NCBI GenBank assembly: GCA_040881505.1
Contig: JBBEDC010000012.1
Location: 1-40,361, forward strand
Reading direction: 5' to 3'
Length of the DNA: 40,361 nucleotides
DNA from: Candidatus Anderseniibacteriota bacterium
GTDB lineage: Bacteria > Patescibacteriota > Andersenbacteria > UBA10190
Part shown: positions 1-33,115 of the stretch, piece after piece
How the letters are laid out: each line of letters opens with the position of its first letter
Position numbering within the stretch: position 1 is the first letter of the stretch
Notes under the pieces: generated by a model
Seen by the model: the letters and a program-made list of their open reading frames with translations, nothing else
What the model was told of the DNA's origin: nothing
The model's database searches: none
Translations under genes and position numbers: made by a program

Positions 1-23
1 GCCCTTTTGATAAGGATACCGCC

Positions 24-395
24 ATGGTGTGGTTCACCGCTGTTGTCTTGGTTATCGCCCTCTTGATTTGCTTCCGGTTGAAGCAAACCTTGGATCGGAG
101 GCGCCACGCAGCCATCAAGGCCTCCTTGTCGTCGCTGGCTGCCGACATGGCCTACGCCTTCGGCACCTTTCGCCACGGAGATCGGGAGATCCAACTTCAA
201 GAGTTGGCTGACCGTCTCGGGCAGCTTTCAAGTGATGAGGCCGCCCATTTGCGGACCCTCGCGCTGGAAGCGATCCGGACTGGAAATCTTCCGCCACCCA
301 TTGTGCGGGAGACAAACAAACGTGAGTTTGCGTTCGTCTCACACTGTATCGGGACAGTGTGTGGGCAGACACAAGCGGCGCTTCAGCGTCCCTAG
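24..395 (+). CDS. hypothetical membrane-anchored protein (N-terminal TM helix, helical C-terminal part)
   Basis: 123-aa ORF. AAGGA at 12-16 lies 7 nt before the ATG. N-terminus VWFTAVVLVIALLICF is hydrophobic. Mostly G/C-ending codons. Followed by an intrinsic terminator at 420-450. No family recognised. Confidence 0.45.
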   Translation: MVWFTAVVLVIALLICFRLKQTLDRRRHAAIKASLSSLAADMAYAFGTFRHGDREIQLQELADRLGQLSSDEAAHLRTLALEAIRTGNLPPPIVRETNKREFAFVSHCIGTVCGQTQAALQRP

Positions 396-419
396 TAGCT
401 GTCCCGTCCGATCAACCAA

Positions 420-450
420 CCGCAGGGCCTTGCCCAGCGGTTTTCTTTTT
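420..450 (+). terminator. rho-independent terminator
   Basis: CCGCAGGGC-CTT-GCCCAGCGG hairpin (9 bp, one mismatch) followed by TTTTCTTTTT. Lies between convergent ORFs 24-395 and 458-796. Confidence 0.6.
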
Positions 451-457
451 GAATTGT

Positions 458-796
458 TTACCTTTCTAACGCCGTCATCCGACGACCAAGCTCGTACGTT
501 TTGTTCTCGACGTAGTCCAGCCGTTCGGGCATATCTTCTTGATGGCGAACTCGTCTGTCGAGTGCCGTCATTGCGGAGGTATTTGCATCAACCTTCTGGG
601 AAATTTCTTTATTAAACTGCCTTTGTTTCTTCCAGTTTTCCTTTTGCTCTGATCTAAATTCTTTCAGCTCTGTTGTAAACTCCTCCTTAAGTGTCTTAAT
701 CTCTTGCAGTAAATAACTCCCAACTTCTTTAATTGTGTCGGTAATTTCCACGAGTTGGCGCTGGGTAGCTGGCTTATCAAGATCCTTTTTTGGCAT
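458..796 (-). CDS. hypothetical coiled-coil protein
   Basis: 112-aa ORF rich in K/E/Q heptad-like sequence (KTLKEEFTTELKEFRSEQKENWKKQ). AT-rich. Downstream of and co-oriented with the CDPS gene. No family recognised. Confidence 0.45.
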   Translation of the reverse strand: MPKKDLDKPATQRQLVEITDTIKEVGSYLLQEIKTLKEEFTTELKEFRSEQKENWKKQRQFNKEISQKVDANTSAMTALDRRVRHQEDMPERLDYVENKTYELGRRMTALER

Positions 797-923
797 GCGT
801 GTATCGTACCATCATGAGATCACGAGAGAAATAGTGTTTCGCAGCATGGACCGCGTTCAAACCTGGTTTAAAAAAGAATTCTGGCAATTTTCACCTACTA
901 AATTTTGCAAATCAAGTAGTTGG

Positions 924-1556
924 CTAGGCTTTCGTTACAATCTGGAAACCAAGTTTATTTCTTGGTTTTCCATCATAGGCACCGTTAATGTACTTCTCAT
1001 ACACCATCCAATGCGCGTGATACACATAGGTAACTTTGGCTGCACTGAAAAAAGTTGGAGCAAATTCAAGAAACGCTAATTCTGACAACAGGTAGTGATT
1101 AGCAATTTGAGTGGCGACTTGAATATCTAAATCCTCCTTCTTTAAACCTTTCAAAACAAATGCGGTTGTGTCATCAGTATCTTTACGAAAACTTCCATTT
1201 TCGTCGTACATTTTTCTTACAATTCCATAATGCCGCCGATACTCTAAGTTTTCTTCAATCTCATTCTTCCAATCGACTACATGAACATCTTTTTTATCGA
1301 GATTCAGTTTCTCAATCGCTCTTGCAACTTTATTTTTTAAGTTATTGCTTTTTAAAACTGCCTTTGCCCGTGCTTCCTTTTCTGAGTAGCCAACAGCTGT
1401 GTATGTCGAGATCGCGGGAATATCGGCAATAAAAACAGAAACAGTGCCGTATTGTTTCGCAACCTTTTGCAATAACCACTCAATAATCTCCTCGCTAAAA
1501 TAGCTGTTGCCTGGACTCATTCCAACCACTGGTACGTTTTGTACTACTTTTGACAT
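924..1556 (-). CDS. tRNA-dependent cyclodipeptide synthase (CDPS), NYH-type motifs
   Basis: 210-aa ORF. VGMSPGNSYFS matches the CDPS catalytic-Ser motif (AlbC GISAGNSYFS, YvmC GISPFNSRFS). HYLLSELAFL matches the Y-x3-E motif (YvmC YVIAELPFF). VYHAHW matches the YH motif (YvmC AYHRPW). Comparison is from memory of family sequences; no search was run. Confidence 0.8.
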   Translation of the reverse strand: MSKVVQNVPVVGMSPGNSYFSEEIIEWLLQKVAKQYGTVSVFIADIPAISTYTAVGYSEKEARAKAVLKSNNLKNKVARAIEKLNLDKKDVHVVDWKNEIEENLEYRRHYGIVRKMYDENGSFRKDTDDTTAFVLKGLKKEDLDIQVATQIANHYLLSELAFLEFAPTFFSAAKVTYVYHAHWMVYEKYINGAYDGKPRNKLGFQIVTKA

Positions 1557-1626
1557 AGAGAATAAACCATATTCTATTTTCTAGAATATCTCAAAAACAT
1601 CTTATCTTTTAATCGCCTTAAGCCAG

Positions 1627-1697
1627 TTCCCGGGGAAGGATTCGAACCTTCGTTAGGGGATCCAAAGTCCCCCGTCCTGCCGCTAGACGACCCGGGA
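1627..1697 (-). tRNA. tRNA-Gln (anticodon UUG)
   Basis: The reverse complement folds as a 71-nt cloverleaf. Acceptor TCCCGGG/CCCGGGA, D stem GTCT/GGAC, anticodon stem GGGGA/TCCCC with loop CTTTGGA (TTG), T arm GAAGG-TTCGAAT-CCTTC, discriminator A. CCA is not encoded. Confidence 0.9.
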
Positions 1698-1815
1698 ATA
1701 TGGGTCACAATACCGATATTTTACCGTTGTAGCAAGCTTGTGGAAAAACAAGCATAGAACAGTCGTACAGTATCTGTTCTGGTGGTAAAATATATAAGTA
1801 TTAAACTTCCTTTGT

Positions 1816-2541
1816 ATGCCCGCTAAGCTCGAAGAGCGCAAACGCGCTATAGTATTACGTAAACAAGGATTTTCCTATAAGGAAATCCAACACAGCGTTC
1901 CTGTTTCAAAAGCTTCTTTGTCGCTTTGGCTTAGAGAAGTTTCCCTTACACAAAAGCAAAAACAGCGACTAGCTCGCTTATCTCTCGTGGGTCAAGAAGC
2001 TGGCGCAAGAGCTCAACGCGTCAAAAGATTGGAAGGAATAAGTCAATTGGCAGAAGAAATTAGAAAAGAGTTACCTAGGCTACTTCAGGATCCCTTTTTC
2101 GTAACAGGTCTTTCGCTATATTGGGCAGAGGGAACTAAGCAAAAACCGTGGAATGTATCTCAGCAGGTCACATTCGCAAACTCTGACGAAAGGACCATTG
2201 TTCTTATGCAAAAGTGGTTGTGTCGATACCTTAGGCTAGATGAGAAGCAACTAGTGTATCGTCTCCATATTCATGAAACGGCTAATATTGAAAGCGCGAA
2301 ACGAAAATGGAGCAAAATACTTAACGTTAGACCTGCCATTCTTCAGGTTACTGTTAAAAGAAATAATTCCTTGTTTCGAAAAAACACACATCGCAACAGC
2401 CTCAGCGGATACAAGGGACTAATTGTGATCAAGGTAAGAAAGAGCGCATGGTTTAACAGACGAATTGACCTATGGACTGATGGCATGTCTGAACACTTTC
2501 TGAAAGCAACCTCTTACACCTTAACCCCAAATACTTCTTGA
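1816..2541 (+). CDS. HTH-domain protein with LAGLIDADG-like homing-endonuclease-like core (tentative)
   Basis: 241-aa ORF. The N-terminus RKRAIVLRKQGFSYKEIQHSVPVSKASLSLWLREV looks like a helix-turn-helix. GLSLYWAEGTK plus VTFANSDERTIVLMQKWL resemble LAGLIDADG-type motifs. The 3-prime end overlaps the dnaX stop by 28 bp (convergent). Confidence 0.45.
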   Translation: MPAKLEERKRAIVLRKQGFSYKEIQHSVPVSKASLSLWLREVSLTQKQKQRLARLSLVGQEAGARAQRVKRLEGISQLAEEIRKELPRLLQDPFFVTGLSLYWAEGTKQKPWNVSQQVTFANSDERTIVLMQKWLCRYLRLDEKQLVYRLHIHETANIESAKRKWSKILNVRPAILQVTVKRNNSLFRKNTHRNSLSGYKGLIVIKVRKSAWFNRRIDLWTDGMSEHFLKATSYTLTPNTS

Positions 2542-4058
2542 ACGTCTTTTAGATGCTTTTCCTCTTGTTCACGCTTCTCTGCTCGAAGCTCAGATAAAGA
2601 CTTTCCATTTGATTCCAGTACAACAGTAACAGTGACAGACTGCCCTAACAGCTCGCTCAATATCTTTTCAACCAGTTGCCTGTTCTCCCCCTTCTCAAAG
2701 AAGTTTCGATGAAGCGGAAACTGCACTCGTAGACTGATCTGATTTCCATCTATCCCTGTTGCCTCCGTTGCTCGCAAGAAGGTAGAGCTAACGGGATTAC
2801 TTTTTTTGATATTGTCTATGAGGGACGGCCAAGCTTCTTTGATCTGATCAACTGTGACGACGCCTGTGGTGGGCACTGGAGTCGGAGTTTGGGGGGCGAC
2901 TGGAGCTTGTTTTGGTTGAGCTGGCGGCTGGACAGGAACGGCCTTAGGCGCCTGGGCTACGGGAGCCTGTACTTTCGGTGCTGCAACTGCTTGAGGTTGT
3001 GGTGCAGCCGTTGTAGGCGTACACACCGTTAACGCTGCTAGTTGTAAGGCGATGATTGGCTGCGGTACGTACGTAATGTCTTGGGTGGCTTGAATTAAGG
3101 CGCGGATAATGGCGGGCAGCTTTGCGCCAGCACCAGGCTCGGCCGCAAAGGCCAGCGGATATGTTTCATTTTTCGTCAGTGCCACTAAGCCGTCACGCGC
3201 GGTACGAACTGTTTCCTGGATAAACTGTTCGGGATCTACTCCTTCTTGAAATAGCGTATCAACAACTGCCACTGCCTCGGGGCCGTTGTTTTTTATAAGG
3301 GCGGCGAGGAAGTCGTTAATGTATTGAGGAGATGGCATGCCCAGGAGCGTGCTTAAACTATCAAGCGATACCGTTTTTTCGTCACTGGAAAGTATTTGGC
3401 CCAGTAAGCTTTCAGCGTCGCGATAACAACCATCACTGCGGGAGATGATGAAAGAAATAACATCATCGGCTACATCTCGCTTTTCTTGCTTCAAAATCCT
3501 GCCTAAGCGGGTACGCATTTCAGTATCACTAGCTCGTCGAAACCGAAAGACCTGACAGCGAGATAAAACTGTCGGCGGAATCTTGTGAAGTTCCGTGGTG
3601 GCGAGGATAAAGATTGCGTGCTTAACAGGCTCCTCTAGTGTCTTTAACAGTGCCGCAAACGCTTCGTTTGTTAACATGTGCACTTCATCGATGATGTACA
3701 CCTTGTATGTTCCGATATTGGGAGCTAAAGCAATTTGTTCGCGCAACGCTCGAATATCATCAATACCGCGGTTGCTGGCTGCATCGATTTCAATAATATC
3801 GACATTGCGGTGCTCCTGAGTGGCTACGCACAGCTTACATTTCCCGCATGGCTCCACTCCCTTGGGTTTGGTGCAGTTTAGGCGCTTAGCTAAAAGCCGT
3901 GCAGTCGTTGTCTTTCCGGTGCCGCGCGGGCCTTGGAATAGATAGGCGTGAGCTACACGATCTTTAAGAATCGCCTGTTCAAGGATGTTGGTTACATGAT
4001 CCTGGCCTACAACCTCGCCGAAGGTTTGAGGTCGGTATTGTCGGTAAATAGCAGGCAT
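2514..4058 (-). CDS. dnaX: DNA polymerase III subunit gamma/tau
   Basis: 514 aa. YRPQTFGEVVGQDHV, Walker A GPRGTGKTT, Zn module CTKPKGVEPCGKCKLC, DEVHML, SRCQ sensor, then a Pro/Ala/Gln-rich linker and a C-terminal domain. Confidence 0.95.
   Translation of the reverse strand: MPAIYRQYRPQTFGEVVGQDHVTNILEQAILKDRVAHAYLFQGPRGTGKTTTARLLAKRLNCTKPKGVEPCGKCKLCVATQEHRNVDIIEIDAASNRGIDDIRALREQIALAPNIGTYKVYIIDEVHMLTNEAFAALLKTLEEPVKHAIFILATTELHKIPPTVLSRCQVFRFRRASDTEMRTRLGRILKQEKRDVADDVISFIISRSDGCYRDAESLLGQILSSDEKTVSLDSLSTLLGMPSPQYINDFLAALIKNNGPEAVAVVDTLFQEGVDPEQFIQETVRTARDGLVALTKNETYPLAFAAEPGAGAKLPAIIRALIQATQDITYVPQPIIALQLAALTVCTPTTAAPQPQAVAAPKVQAPVAQAPKAVPVQPPAQPKQAPVAPQTPTPVPTTGVVTVDQIKEAWPSLIDNIKKSNPVSSTFLRATEATGIDGNQISLRVQFPLHRNFFEKGENRQLVEKILSELLGQSVTVTVVLESNGKSLSELRAEKREQEEKHLKDVQEVFGVKV
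2765..2807 (-). promoter_or_regulatory. candidate programmed -1 frameshift / slippage site in dnaX (A7 run + hairpin)
   Basis: Minus strand reads ATC AAA AAA AGT AAT in frame (IKKSN). The -1 frame after the A7 run (2807-2801) reads AAG TAA. A 9-bp bulged hairpin CCGTTAGCTC...GAGCAACGG (2794-2765) starts 6 nt after the run. Confidence 0.3.
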
Positions 4059-4142: not shown

Positions 4143-4493
4143 TTAAAACTTACTTAAGAAAATCGGTATATTTAGGAAGAGCGATATCCACAAGTAAAAG
4201 AGAGCAGCTGTTCGTACGAACTGTTTAGACACTCTCTTTTGGAAAAATACATGACCATAATAGCTAAGAAAGGAATAGTCATATTTAAGGCGTGGATCTT
4301 CTTGTTTTCTTAACATGAATTCCCATTTTGTTAAGAAGCAGTGTCCCAAGACTGTTTCAGACACAAGAGTTGCTATGAGCGTCAAGAGGTAGAGAAAGTA
4401 AAGCGGAGTAGTAGAGCTCCAGCCCGTAAGCAGTATTGCAACAATGAGAACGTGAACCAGTACTACCACGTTAGCTAGCAGTGTGGATAGCAT
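4143..4493 (-). CDS. DUF2784-like small membrane protein
   Basis: 116 aa with about 4 hydrophobic segments. GHCFLTKWEFMLRK resembles the CPLT..E..LR motif of DUF2784. AT-rich. Confidence 0.55.
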   Translation of the reverse strand: MLSTLLANVVVLVHVLIVAILLTGWSSTTPLYFLYLLTLIATLVSETVLGHCFLTKWEFMLRKQEDPRLKYDYSFLSYYGHVFFQKRVSKQFVRTAALFYLWISLFLNIPIFLSKF

Positions 4494-14585: not shown

Positions 14586-15644
14586 TTACTTAAGCTGTGA
14601 GTTATGCACTGATGGGAGGAGGACTTCCTGAAGAGATTCCAGATCCTCCAAAACAATACCCGTACCGCGCACCACTACAGTGAGTGGATCATCTGCCACG
14701 TGGGTTCGAATTTGAGTTTCTCGGGCAATCGTCTCATCCAGTCCGCGCAGCAGCGCTCCTCCGCCGGCCAAGAATATGCCTTGCTCGATAATATCGGAAA
14801 TGAGTTCTGGCGGCGTTGCCTCGATAACTTCCTTTACCGCCTCGACGATGCTATGGATCGAGCGCTGCATCGCCTCTCTGGCTTGAGGGGCGCTCATGAT
14901 GATCTCCTTAGGCAGTCCGGTTACCAGATCCCTCCCGCGGATCGGAGCTTCTAAGGAATCGTCAGAATCAACCGCGCTGCCGATGCGAATCTTTATTTCT
15001 TCCGCACTGCGCTCGCCAATTAACATATTGAAATGGTCGCGAACGTACTGAACGATATTTTCGTTGAGTTCGTCCCCAGCAATACGCAGAGTTCGATTTA
15101 CGACGATACCTCCTAGGGAGATAACGGAAATCTCGGTCGTTCCGCCGCCGATATCAACTATGATATTCCCTTTTGCTTCATGAATCGGCATGCGGGCCCC
15201 GATAGCCGCCGCCATAGATTCTTCAATTAAAAACACTGCTCGGGCCCCGGCTCGCAGACTGGCTTCTTCTACGGCTCTACGCTCTACTTCCGTAACCGAG
15301 GATGGAATGCCGATAACGATTCGCGGGCGGGGCATGAAGTGGAACCCGTTTTCGTGCACTTTTTGAATGAAGTAACTTAACATCTGTTCGGTTACTTCAA
15401 AGTCCGAGATAACTCCATCGCGTAGTGGACGTACAGCAACGATATGAGCCGGGGTTCGCCCCACCATGCGCTGGGCTTCCTTTCCGATCGCCAATACCTG
15501 TCCTGTTTTCTTATTAATTGCCACAACCGAAGGTTCATTAATAATGATCCCTTCGCCTGGTACGTATACTAAAGTATTGGCTGTTCCCAAATCGATGCCG
15601 ATGTCTTGGGAAAACTTGCCAAGCATGTTATTTACAAATCCCAC
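14586..15644 (-). CDS. mreB: rod shape-determining protein MreB
   Basis: Actin-fold motifs DIGIDLGTANT, VDIGGGTTE, LAGGGALLRGLD. The true start may be the ATG at 15626 (MLGKFSQDIG). Confidence 0.95.
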   Translation of the reverse strand: MGFVNNMLGKFSQDIGIDLGTANTLVYVPGEGIIINEPSVVAINKKTGQVLAIGKEAQRMVGRTPAHIVAVRPLRDGVISDFEVTEQMLSYFIQKVHENGFHFMPRPRIVIGIPSSVTEVERRAVEEASLRAGARAVFLIEESMAAAIGARMPIHEAKGNIIVDIGGGTTEISVISLGGIVVNRTLRIAGDELNENIVQYVRDHFNMLIGERSAEEIKIRIGSAVDSDDSLEAPIRGRDLVTGLPKEIIMSAPQAREAMQRSIHSIVEAVKEVIEATPPELISDIIEQGIFLAGGGALLRGLDETIARETQIRTHVADDPLTVVVRGTGIVLEDLESLQEVLLPSVHNSQLK

Positions 15645-32104: not shown

Positions 32105-33115
32105 TTACTTCGTCAGCAAAATACTTCGCTTGTAGTTATCAAGATTTTCTAAAGCAGCGCCCGCTCCTTTGACGACGCACACCAGCGGATCATCGGCGAT
32201 ATAGCAGGGAACTTGTGTTGCTTGAGAGATTAGTTGGTCAACATTGCGCAGCAGCGCTCCGCCACCACTGACTACAATTCCCTTGTCTATAACATCGGCG
32301 GCAAGTTCTGGAGGCGTCTCCTGTAATACATGCTTGATAGCTTGTAACATCTCCAGCAGCGGATCCCGCAGCGCCTCCGTCACCTCGCTTGAGCTTATAA
32401 TAGCCTCCTTAGGCAGACCAGACGCCAAGTCCCGTCCTCGAATCTTGAGCTCTTTAGGTTCTTCTTCGTGAATAGCGGAACCGATATTCTTCTTTACATA
32501 CTCAGCCGTCGGCTCCCCGATCATCAACCCATATCTTCGTCGAATATGTTCTGTGATTGCTCGATCAAAGGCGTTGCCTCCAACACGAGCTGAGTGCGCG
32601 GTTACGATGCCGCCGAGAGAAATAACGGCAACCTCGGTCGTACCTCCACCGATATCAACGATCATGTGTCCAGAGCTCTCCCCAATTGGAATATTCGCAC
32701 CAATTGCTGCAGCCACAGGCTCCTTAATTAAATATGCCGCCTTAGCCCCGGCGGAGACGGTCGCATCTACCACCGCTCGGCGTTCGGTGCTGGTAATACC
32801 GGCCGGAACCGATACCAGCACTTCCGGACGCAAAAACTTTACGGACGCCCCGGTTTGCTTAAGCAGGTATCGCAGCATTGCCTCGGCAACGCGGTAATCA
32901 GCAATGACGCCATCCTTTAAAGGTCGATGCGCCACAATCGTATCGGGTGTGCGGCCAATCATATCTTCAGCTTCCTTTCCAACAGCCAATACTGCATTAT
33001 CATCTACCGAAACTGCTACCACCGATGGTTCGTTCAAAACGATGCCCTTCTTGGGGACATACATCAGCGTGCTGGTGGTGCCTAAATCAATTGCGATCTT
33101 CCGTGTCCATGCCAT
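32105..33115 (-). CDS. MreB-family actin homolog (second paralog)
   Basis: 336 aa. IAIDLGTTSTLMYV, VDIGGGTTEVAV, VSGGGALLRNVD. Clearly homologous to, but distinct from, the MreB at 14586-15644. Confidence 0.9.
   Translation of the reverse strand: MAWTRKIAIDLGTTSTLMYVPKKGIVLNEPSVVAVSVDDNAVLAVGKEAEDMIGRTPDTIVAHRPLKDGVIADYRVAEAMLRYLLKQTGASVKFLRPEVLVSVPAGITSTERRAVVDATVSAGAKAAYLIKEPVAAAIGANIPIGESSGHMIVDIGGGTTEVAVISLGGIVTAHSARVGGNAFDRAITEHIRRRYGLMIGEPTAEYVKKNIGSAIHEEEPKELKIRGRDLASGLPKEAIISSSEVTEALRDPLLEMLQAIKHVLQETPPELAADVIDKGIVVSGGGALLRNVDQLISQATQVPCYIADDPLVCVVKGAGAALENLDNYKRSILLTK

Follow-up and report, generated by a model that had tools for sequence, protein, structure and literature searches.

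A stand-alone cyclodipeptide synthase gene behind tRNA-Gln in an Andersenbacteria genome, and the recurrent placement of its clade behind tRNA genes

Why does a gene for an enzyme that would consume charged tRNA lie directly behind a tRNA gene in the tiny genome of a bacterium of the candidate phyla radiation (CPR), and is it the gene that it appears to be? The question is raised by a 40,361-nt stretch of DNA from a Candidatus Anderseniibacteriota bacterium (assembly GCA_040881505.1, contig JBBEDC010000012.1, positions 1 to 40,361; hereafter the window), in which a preliminary description, made from the letters alone, had recognized a cyclodipeptide synthase (CDPS) gene downstream of a tRNA-Gln gene. 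In our reading, to which we assign a probability of about 85%, the locus holds a functional, stand-alone CDPS of the NYH subfamily that is inherited vertically as one unit with tRNA-Gln beside dnaX, and that is most likely expressed by read-through from the tRNA gene, from a promoter-like element in the spacer, or from both. The analysis shows the family membership, the fold, the intact catalytic residues, the purifying selection, the synteny and the enriched tRNA adjacency; the chemistry, the structure of the transcript and any role of the product are inferred.

From our analysis of the 210-codon open reading frame (ORF), it is a real and intact CDPS gene. The assignment made in the preliminary description (three CDPS signature blocks, a catalytic Ser14 and the NYH subfamily) held up in profile searches, in alignment with AlbC, YvmC and Rv2275, and in structure prediction. 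In profile hidden Markov model searches, the protein scored far above the cut-offs of both Pfam PF16715 (CDPS; E=2e-32, 113.2 bits, cut-off 27) and NCBIfam TIGR04539 (tRNA-dependent cyclodipeptide synthase; 130.3 bits, cut-off 45). The solved structures nearest to it by sequence are those of YvmC, BtCDPS, AlbC, the Staphylococcus haemolyticus cyclo-Leu-Leu synthase and Rv2275. An AlphaFold2 model built on 35 relatives (predicted local distance difference test score, pLDDT, 96.1; predicted template-modeling score, pTM, 0.91) has a predicted Rossmann-type fold resembling class-Ic aminoacyl-tRNA synthetases, and its best 47 PDB matches by Foldseek are all CDPSs (template-modeling score, TM, 0.63-0.84), with YvmC, AlbC and Rv2275 at the top (TM 0.79-0.84) and tyrosyl-tRNA synthetase coming next. 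The signature blocks read G12-M-S14-P-G-N17-S-Y-F, Y155-x3-E159 and Y179-H180. By alignment, S14, Y155, E159 and Y179 correspond to Ser37, Tyr178, Glu182 and Tyr202 of AlbC, which are catalytic and almost strictly conserved among active CDPSs (PMC7566563). N17 and H180 mark the protein as a member of the NYH subfamily (AlbC Asn40, Tyr202 and His203) and not of the XYP subfamily (X40, Tyr202 and Pro203), and all six residues are invariant in the alignment of the 35 relatives. A helix rich in lysine and arginine (residues 59-83, 8 K/R) corresponds to the alpha-4 helix, which has been proposed as tRNA-binding in NYH enzymes. Compared with the closest homolog (72% identical; locus L001), identity at codon positions 1, 2 and 3 is 0.81, 0.85 and 0.65, which is indicative of purifying selection on the protein.

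A protein identical to that of the window is already present in NCBI as 'MAG: tRNA-dependent cyclodipeptide synthase [Candidatus Andersenbacteria bacterium]' (MAG, metagenome-assembled genome), and many relatives are found among NCBI proteins at 37-72% identity. A search of a library of 1.84 billion 50%-identity representatives with the window CDPS returned 489 proteins at E<=1e-3, 40 of them at E<=1e-30. A scan of the GTDB species representatives gave 67 loci with close relatives (numbered with the prefix L), mostly from Patescibacteria or DPANN; the taxa comprise many Patescibacteria classes, DPANN (Woese-, Micr- and Nanoarchaeota), Melainabacteria/Obscuribacterales, Bdellovibrionota, and a few others. 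Clade members, including two with an extra C-terminal domain, had been tabulated as NYH CDPSs by Gondry et al. (2018; PMC5816076 supplement, DataSheet4). The earlier remark that such an enzyme is unexpected in a streamlined genome is contradicted by these 67 representatives and by the CPR members listed in 2018 (PMC5816076); the presence of a CDPS in a reduced genome is typical of the clade and not surprising. Our search of the literature on CDPSs in connection with the CPR, solute-binding proteins or tRNA genes found no dedicated study, the 2018 supplementary table alone listing clade members, and found no biochemically characterized member of the clade. In essence, the window CDPS is correctly annotated already and its family is catalogued, so that it holds no conceptual surprise; the mildly new point is the recurrent placement of CDPS genes of this clade directly behind tRNA genes.

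The tRNA-Gln is the only tRNA gene in the window and has a canonical housekeeping look; its acceptor pair is U1-A72, and the CCA end is not encoded. It lies directly upstream of the CDPS gene and co-oriented with it, as had been described, at a distance of 69 nt. In L001, a tRNA-Gln(CTG) gene lies 78 nt upstream of the CDPS gene on the same strand, within a neighborhood that is unrelated to that of the window (YdjM, ABC/FtsX and release factor genes upstream, and a gene for a pyridoxal-phosphate enzyme downstream). The sole DNA common to the two loci by blastn is an 878-nt block of 75.6% identity (L001 7847..8723 = window 1701..833), which extends from the tRNA 5' end to ~90 nt past the CDPS stop codon. 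A tRNA-Gln gene stands upstream of the CDPS gene in all three members of this subclade (the window, L001 and L069); a metagenome scan for further close relatives found one distant locus only, leaving the subclade at three members.

For the clade as a whole, we counted a tRNA gene as adjacent when it was the nearest upstream feature, co-oriented and within 350 nt. Such a tRNA precedes 9 of the 64 clade CDPS genes (14%) and 14 of the 725 other genes of the same loci (1.9%; odds ratio 8.3, Fisher p = 3e-5), the loci being phylogenetically non-independent and amounting to about six independent events (Gln, Thr, Leu, Gly, Ser and His). Several of the junctions are short, with 6 nt in L051 (tRNA-Leu), 9 nt in L026 (tRNA-Gly), 19 nt in L070 (tRNA-Thr) and 42 nt in L069. 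Since junctions of 6-19 nt leave no room for a promoter, co-transcription is implied in L051, L026 and L070. A neighbor-joining tree places the window subclade (Gln) next to L070 (Thr) and the Bdellovibrionales copies (Leu), and a tRNA gene precedes six of these seven stand-alone genes. The enrichment of upstream tRNA genes favors co-transcription and not a substrate link.

Conceivably, the adjacency is functionally meaningless, that is, an inherited synteny in which short gaps are rarely broken and the CDPS gene is served by its own promoter only. We consider this a serious possibility, somewhat short of an even chance. It would agree with the promoter-like box conserved just before the ATG in the window and L001, and with the terminator hairpin that separates tRNA and CDPS in L011; 55 of the 64 clade members have no upstream tRNA, and the three tRNA-Gln cases are one evolutionary event. 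It does not readily account for an enrichment of 14% over a background of 1.9%, nor for the occurrence of at least six tRNA identities in separate lineages; the junctions of L051, L026 and L070 are too short for a separate sigma-70 promoter, and in L001 the tRNA-CDPS unit was kept though both flanks changed. A bolder proposal is that, in this CPR/DPANN-centered clade, the CDPS has been deliberately wired into tRNA transcription units as a 3' cistron. Its near-leaderless mRNA would be generated by tRNA 3'-end processing, the synthesis of an enzyme that uses up charged tRNA would be tied to the supply of tRNA, and the arrangement would have been rebuilt repeatedly (with Gln, Thr, Leu, Gly and Ser tRNAs); we hold this proposal to be rather doubtful.

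By analogy with the family (PMC5816076; PMC7566563), a first aminoacyl-tRNA would bind with its aminoacyl group in pocket P1, and this group would be moved onto Ser14; a second aminoacyl-tRNA would give its aminoacyl group via pocket P2 to form a dipeptidyl-enzyme. Y155, E159 and Y179 would assist catalysis, and an intramolecular cyclization would release a 2,5-diketopiperazine. The pocket positions, in AlbC numbering, are 33-35-65-67-119-185-186-200 for P1 and 152-155-156-159-204-206-207 for P2 (PMC5816076), and the window protein mapped onto them one-to-one, giving the motifs VGFAWFLY (P1) and TFVGAWM (P2). Our mapping procedure matched exactly the motifs given by Gondry et al. (2018) for two clade members (PMC5816076 supplement), and the clade consensus is [IV]G[LMF]AWF[LM]Y for P1 and T.V.[KR]W. 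for P2. All P1 residues of the window CDPS (V10, G12, F42, A44, W96, F162, L163 and Y177) are hydrophobic or aromatic, which suggests, from sequence, a hydrophobic residue as the first substrate. The preliminary description had proposed the pocket residues as a means of predicting the substrates; the motifs were obtained, but prediction of substrates from them failed, as no characterized CDPS has a matching motif. The closest published motif to the P1 of the window is VGMAWFFF of CDPS 79, which is an inactive enzyme (PMC5816076), and similar P1 motifs are found in makers of Phe-, Pro-, Leu- or Trp-containing products. The exact product is thus not predictable from sequence.

These pockets bear on the idea that the neighboring tRNA is a dedicated substrate, in which Gln-tRNA(Gln), or Glu-tRNA(Gln) as the transamidation intermediate, would give a Gln- or Glu-containing cyclodipeptide. 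CDPSs do use aminoacyl-tRNAs, with the tRNA body involved in recognition of the second substrate (PMC7566563), and tRNA-Gln is kept upstream in the three closest members despite the CUG anticodon and the changed flanks in L001. However, the P1 motif is near-invariant across the clade, whether the neighbor is tRNA-Gln, Thr, Leu, Gly or Ser or there is no tRNA neighbor at all; both pockets of the window enzyme are hydrophobic and show no group evidently suited to pairing with an amide or carboxylate side chain, and the window tRNA looks like an ordinary chromosomal tRNA-Gln beside dnaX. We regard a dedicated substrate as very unlikely; since the pocket motifs do not change along with the neighboring tRNA, we rejected tRNA-Gln as a substrate marker for the main explanation.

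Two further observations concern the tRNA genes themselves. The CDPS-linked tRNA-Gln carries the anticodon CUG in L001 (7851-7922) and UUG in the window (1626-1697) and in L069 (4064-4136). The tRNA of L001 is identical to that of L069 at 62 of 72 positions and to that of the window at only 50 of 72, the stems of the window tRNA being GC-richer via paired changes; the comparison suggests a putative anticodon switch in an orthologous tRNA-Gln. In a Nomurabacteria genome (L026:2127-4363), a CDPS gene fused to a solute-binding domain lies inside a tRNA cluster, in the order tRNA-Arg, tRNA-Gly, a 9-nt gap, the fused gene and then, on the same strand, tRNA-Pro.

How the CDPS gene is expressed can be approached through the spacer (Table 1). 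Its core (1596..1567) is identical to L001 at 28 of 30 positions, compared with 65% at third codon positions, and of all 30-nt segments of the 878-nt block only one is better conserved; the promoter-like element is absent from L069. The CDPS ATG lies 9 nt after the -10-like box with no Shine-Dalgarno sequence, so that transcription starting there would yield an mRNA with little or no leader. Since no terminator lies between tRNA-Gln and the CDPS gene, read-through from the tRNA promoter is expected. The tRNA-Gln transcript would read through into the CDPS gene, with the mRNA freed by tRNA 3' processing, and/or the conserved promoter-like element would give a near-leaderless CDPS mRNA; expression by one or both of these routes is most likely. 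The earlier suggestion of a shared transcript is therefore plausible, given the lack of a terminator and the gaps of 6-19 nt in relatives, although the conserved promoter-like element in the same spacer offers another route. We could rule out a known RNA such as a riboswitch or T-box in the spacer, as an Rfam search at E<=1 finds the tRNA only. The spacer hairpin appears in the RNA folds of both the window and L001, with non-significant z-scores near 0, and the 3' non-coding stretch after the CDPS stop codon has no significant RNA fold (z-scores near 0).

Table 1. Features of the tRNA-Gln and CDPS locus, in window coordinates.
Feature	Position	Strand	Remarks
Candidate tRNA promoter	1746-1718	(-)	TTTCCA-17-TAAAAT; ~20 nt upstream of tRNA-Gln; consensus scan only
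tRNA-Gln, anticodon UUG (TTG)	1626..1697	(-)	ARAGORN; Rfam RF00005, 62 bits
tRNA-to-CDPS spacer	1557..1625	(-)	69 nt; no terminator, no Shine-Dalgarno sequence
Spacer promoter-like element	TTGAGA 1594-1589, 17 nt, TATGGT 1571-1566	(-)	promoter scan
Spacer palindrome	1589-1569		ATATTCTA-GAAAA-TAGAATAT; overlaps the promoter-like element
CDPS ORF	924..1556	(-)	ATG start; 210 aa; stand-alone; NYH subfamily
3' non-coding stretch after CDPS stop	833..923	(-)	77% identity to L001, not conserved in L069; end of the shared block

The origin of the gene was examined through base composition and synteny. The AT-richness already remarked upon is evident, with a GC content of 0.384 and a GC content at third codon positions of 0.365 in the CDPS gene compared with 0.498 +/- 0.043 and 0.504 +/- 0.075 in the 41 other genes of the window; a low-GC stretch from ~450 to 2540 encloses the gene, and the CDPS genes of L069 (0.393) and L001 (0.398) are also low in GC. 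The gene order in L069 is PMT-like, a 172-aa protein, GtrA, dnaX, tRNA-Gln(TTG) and CDPS. Between the window and L069, the CDPS is 59% identical, compared with 52% for DnaX, 65% for GtrA and 75% for the 173-aa protein, and this divergence of the CDPS in step with its flanks, together with the synteny, is indicative of vertical inheritance. The order dnaX-tRNA-Gln-CDPS is therefore ancestral to the lineages of the window and L069. A recent horizontal acquisition, as the low GC content might imply, is contradicted by the L069 synteny and the matched divergence. Two low-GC genes near the locus are present in the window and missing from L069, namely a 241-aa ORF between dnaX and the tRNA (1816-2541) and a DUF2784 gene (4143-4493).

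Low GC content and repeated tRNA adjacency could together be explained if the CDPS gene were the cargo of a small mobile island that integrates at tRNA 3' ends. The GC contrast (0.384 against 0.498, and similarly low in L001 and L069), the adjacent tRNA genes in several unrelated lineages, the two other low-GC insertions near the locus that are both absent from L069, and the patchy distribution of the clade over distant phyla would all fit such an island. Nevertheless, we found no integrase or recombinase gene in the window, L001, L069 or L070, and no direct repeat of the tRNA 3' end in positions 1-3000 of the window. Moreover, the divergence of the CDPS tracks that of the flanking housekeeping genes, as expected of a long vertical residence, and it is the CDPS gene itself that abuts the tRNA, where classical islands put the integrase. 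We consider the island improbable and retain vertical inheritance of the tRNA-Gln-CDPS unit.

The remainder of the window is a housekeeping backbone (ribosomal proteins, RpoA, a MurA-type enzyme, MreB/MreC, PBP2, SecA, SecDF, ribosome recycling factor, several aminoacyl-tRNA synthetases, GreA, dnaX and holB), and the CDPS gene has as neighbors the tRNA, the 241-aa protein of unknown function, dnaX, DUF2784 and GtrA. The gene had been called an orphan with no tailoring gene in sight. Beside it in the window, we found no gene for a cyclodipeptide oxidase, cytochrome P450, methyltransferase, prenyltransferase or 2-oxoglutarate oxygenase, and the sole generic methyltransferase and PNPOx-like genes of the window lie 24 kb off among housekeeping genes. 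Downstream of the CDPS gene in the syntenic L069 are two small ORFs of unknown function and TruD, with no tailoring gene, and an all-against-all comparison of neighbors across 68 loci found no recurrent partner family beside the clade CDPS genes. The product is probably left unmodified, because there is no tailoring gene here or in L069. The word orphan stands for one side only, since the contig ends 923 nt past the CDPS stop codon.

Several points weigh against our reading of a functional, vertically inherited and tRNA-coupled CDPS. That same contig end leaves the downstream side largely unseen, and a tailoring gene beyond it is possible; the enriched loci reduce to the few independent events given above, and promoter-like matches in the region are no commoner than in shuffled sequence. 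Activity and product would rest on homology at ~23% identity to solved CDPSs, and ~20 N-terminal positions of the Pfam model are not covered by the window protein. The P2 pocket carries A181 and M184 where the closest relatives have R/K and P, a divergence that could mean altered specificity or some decay. It is accordingly conceivable that the protein keeps the CDPS fold with another activity (e.g., aminoacyl transfer to a non-tRNA acceptor), or that it is a decaying, inactive copy. Such a view could draw on these unusual P2 residues, on the presence of a fused SBP_bac_3 ligand-binding domain in roughly half of the clade, which hints at an additional small-molecule partner, and on the inactivity of several metagenome-derived CDPSs in E. 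coli (PMC5816076). The four catalytic residues and the NYH markers are, however, intact and invariant, the full-length ORF bears a signature of purifying selection, and the pocket architecture matches the AlbC positions one-to-one, and we give this view very little credence.

The fused relatives deserve mention in their own right. In 36 of 66 clade loci, the CDPS forms the N-terminal half of an ORF of 450-508 aa, whose C-terminal ~230 aa match SBP_bac_3 (E 1e-13 to 1e-19); examples among L002-L068 are L030:5971-7329, L004:5983-7365, L043:5983-7425, L007:3081-4517 and L050:5896-7422. In the neighbor-joining tree, the fusions group as one large derived clade, whose members come from Patescibacteria, Melainabacteria, Bdellovibrionota, a Woesearchaeote and other taxa. 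The additional domain was remarked upon in two proteins by Gondry et al. (2018), but we came across no study devoted to it; the joining of a cytoplasmic ligand-binding domain to a tRNA-dependent enzyme is a puzzle. SBP_bac_3 (PF00497, ~230-260 aa) is absent from the window ORF, which stops at 210 aa. We also considered the window CDPS as a truncated fusion and rejected this, as tblastn with the 36 solute-binding halves gave no match in the window, L001, L069 or L070.

Other genes of the window drew our attention. The 241-aa ORF (1816-2541, plus strand; GC 0.42) overlaps the dnaX stop codon by 28 nt and is absent from L069. Its family (265 hits) consists of ~228-aa hypothetical proteins, one of them named from Kaiserbacteria (CPR), with an N-terminal helix-turn-helix (HTH_23 in some members) and an invariant LYWAEG.K motif. 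The ORF has no Pfam, NCBIfam, PHROG or PDB sequence match, and its AlphaFold2 model (pLDDT 91) has no PDB fold match (best E 8e-3, TM <= 0.25). The gene may be selfish or mobile; a guess that it encodes a LAGLIDADG-type homing endonuclease was unsupported by family, sequence or fold. The DUF2784 gene (4143-4493, minus strand; 116 aa, GC 0.393) sits between GtrA and dnaX, which are adjacent in L069. A 112-aa ORF rich in charged residues (458-796, minus strand) lies 127 nt downstream of the CDPS gene, co-oriented with it and within the low-GC stretch; its product matches no family above threshold, and no equivalent ORF follows the CDPS genes of L001 and L069. Farther away, two full-length MreB/Mbl paralogs (14586-15644 and 32105-33115, both minus strand; 468 and 448 bits to PF06723) lie within 18 kb of each other, along with MreC and PBP2.

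If the enzyme is active, it would be among very few secondary-metabolite-type enzymes in ultra-small, host-dependent CPR bacteria, and its diketopiperazine could mediate an interaction with the host cell, for example as a signal or an antagonist. Members of the clade are widely found among episymbiotic and predatory lineages (Patescibacteria, DPANN, Melainabacteria and Bdellovibrionota), so that identifying a single product would serve to annotate dozens of species. Leads on the expression and regulation of these enzymes are offered by the recurrent tRNA-CDPS junctions and by the solute-binding fusions. The main residual interest is the modest, statistically supported tendency of the clade CDPS genes to sit 3' of tRNA genes or operons, which we read as transcriptional coupling; that this placement is a selected feature is a tentative idea, and on balance we doubt it.

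Among known systems, YvmC of Bacillus licheniformis (cyclo-Leu-Leu synthase, PDB 3oqh/3oqj) and AlbC of Streptomyces noursei (cyclo-Phe-Leu synthase, PDB 3oqv) are the archetypal NYH CDPSs. Both share with the window protein the fold (Foldseek TM 0.79-0.82, E ~1e-10), the catalytic Ser, Tyr, Glu and Tyr and the N, Y and H markers at equivalent positions, and the K/R-rich helix, although their identity to it is only ~20-24%. The window protein is ~20-30 residues shorter at its N-terminus (Ser14 compared with Ser37), its pocket motif differs, and it lacks an adjoining tailoring enzyme of the kind found with albC (the AlbA/B oxidase) and yvmC (the CypX P450). Closer comparisons are provided by OGY85379 of Kerfeldbacteria (VGLAWFLY/TAVGKWT) and OGI43181 of Moranbacteria (IGFAWFLY/TGVGKWE), two NYH proteins of the same clade (~45-50% identity in the loci examined) and likewise from candidate-phyla genomes, for which no product was predicted (PMC5816076). 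Their P1 motifs are near-identical to the VGFAWFLY of the window; unlike the window protein, they carry a C-terminal domain of ~250 aa, called an 'ABC transporter domain' in PMC5816076 and assigned here to Pfam SBP_bac_3, and the P2 motif of the window, TFVGAWM, is without the K/R and P of its relatives. The sole characterized CPR enzyme that we found is ParaCDPS (CDPS 90) of Parcubacteria bacterium RAAC4_OD1_1, which makes cyclo-His-Pro and cyclo-His-Glu (PDB 7qaq/7qay/7qaw). ParaCDPS belongs to the XYP and not the NYH subfamily, its structural match is lower (TM 0.63, E ~5e-5), and its pockets (GAYAWELY/FEWKYTR) are unrelated; with the window enzyme it shares an origin in a CPR genome, the same general fold and, by homology in the case of the window, what would be the same tRNA-dependent chemistry.

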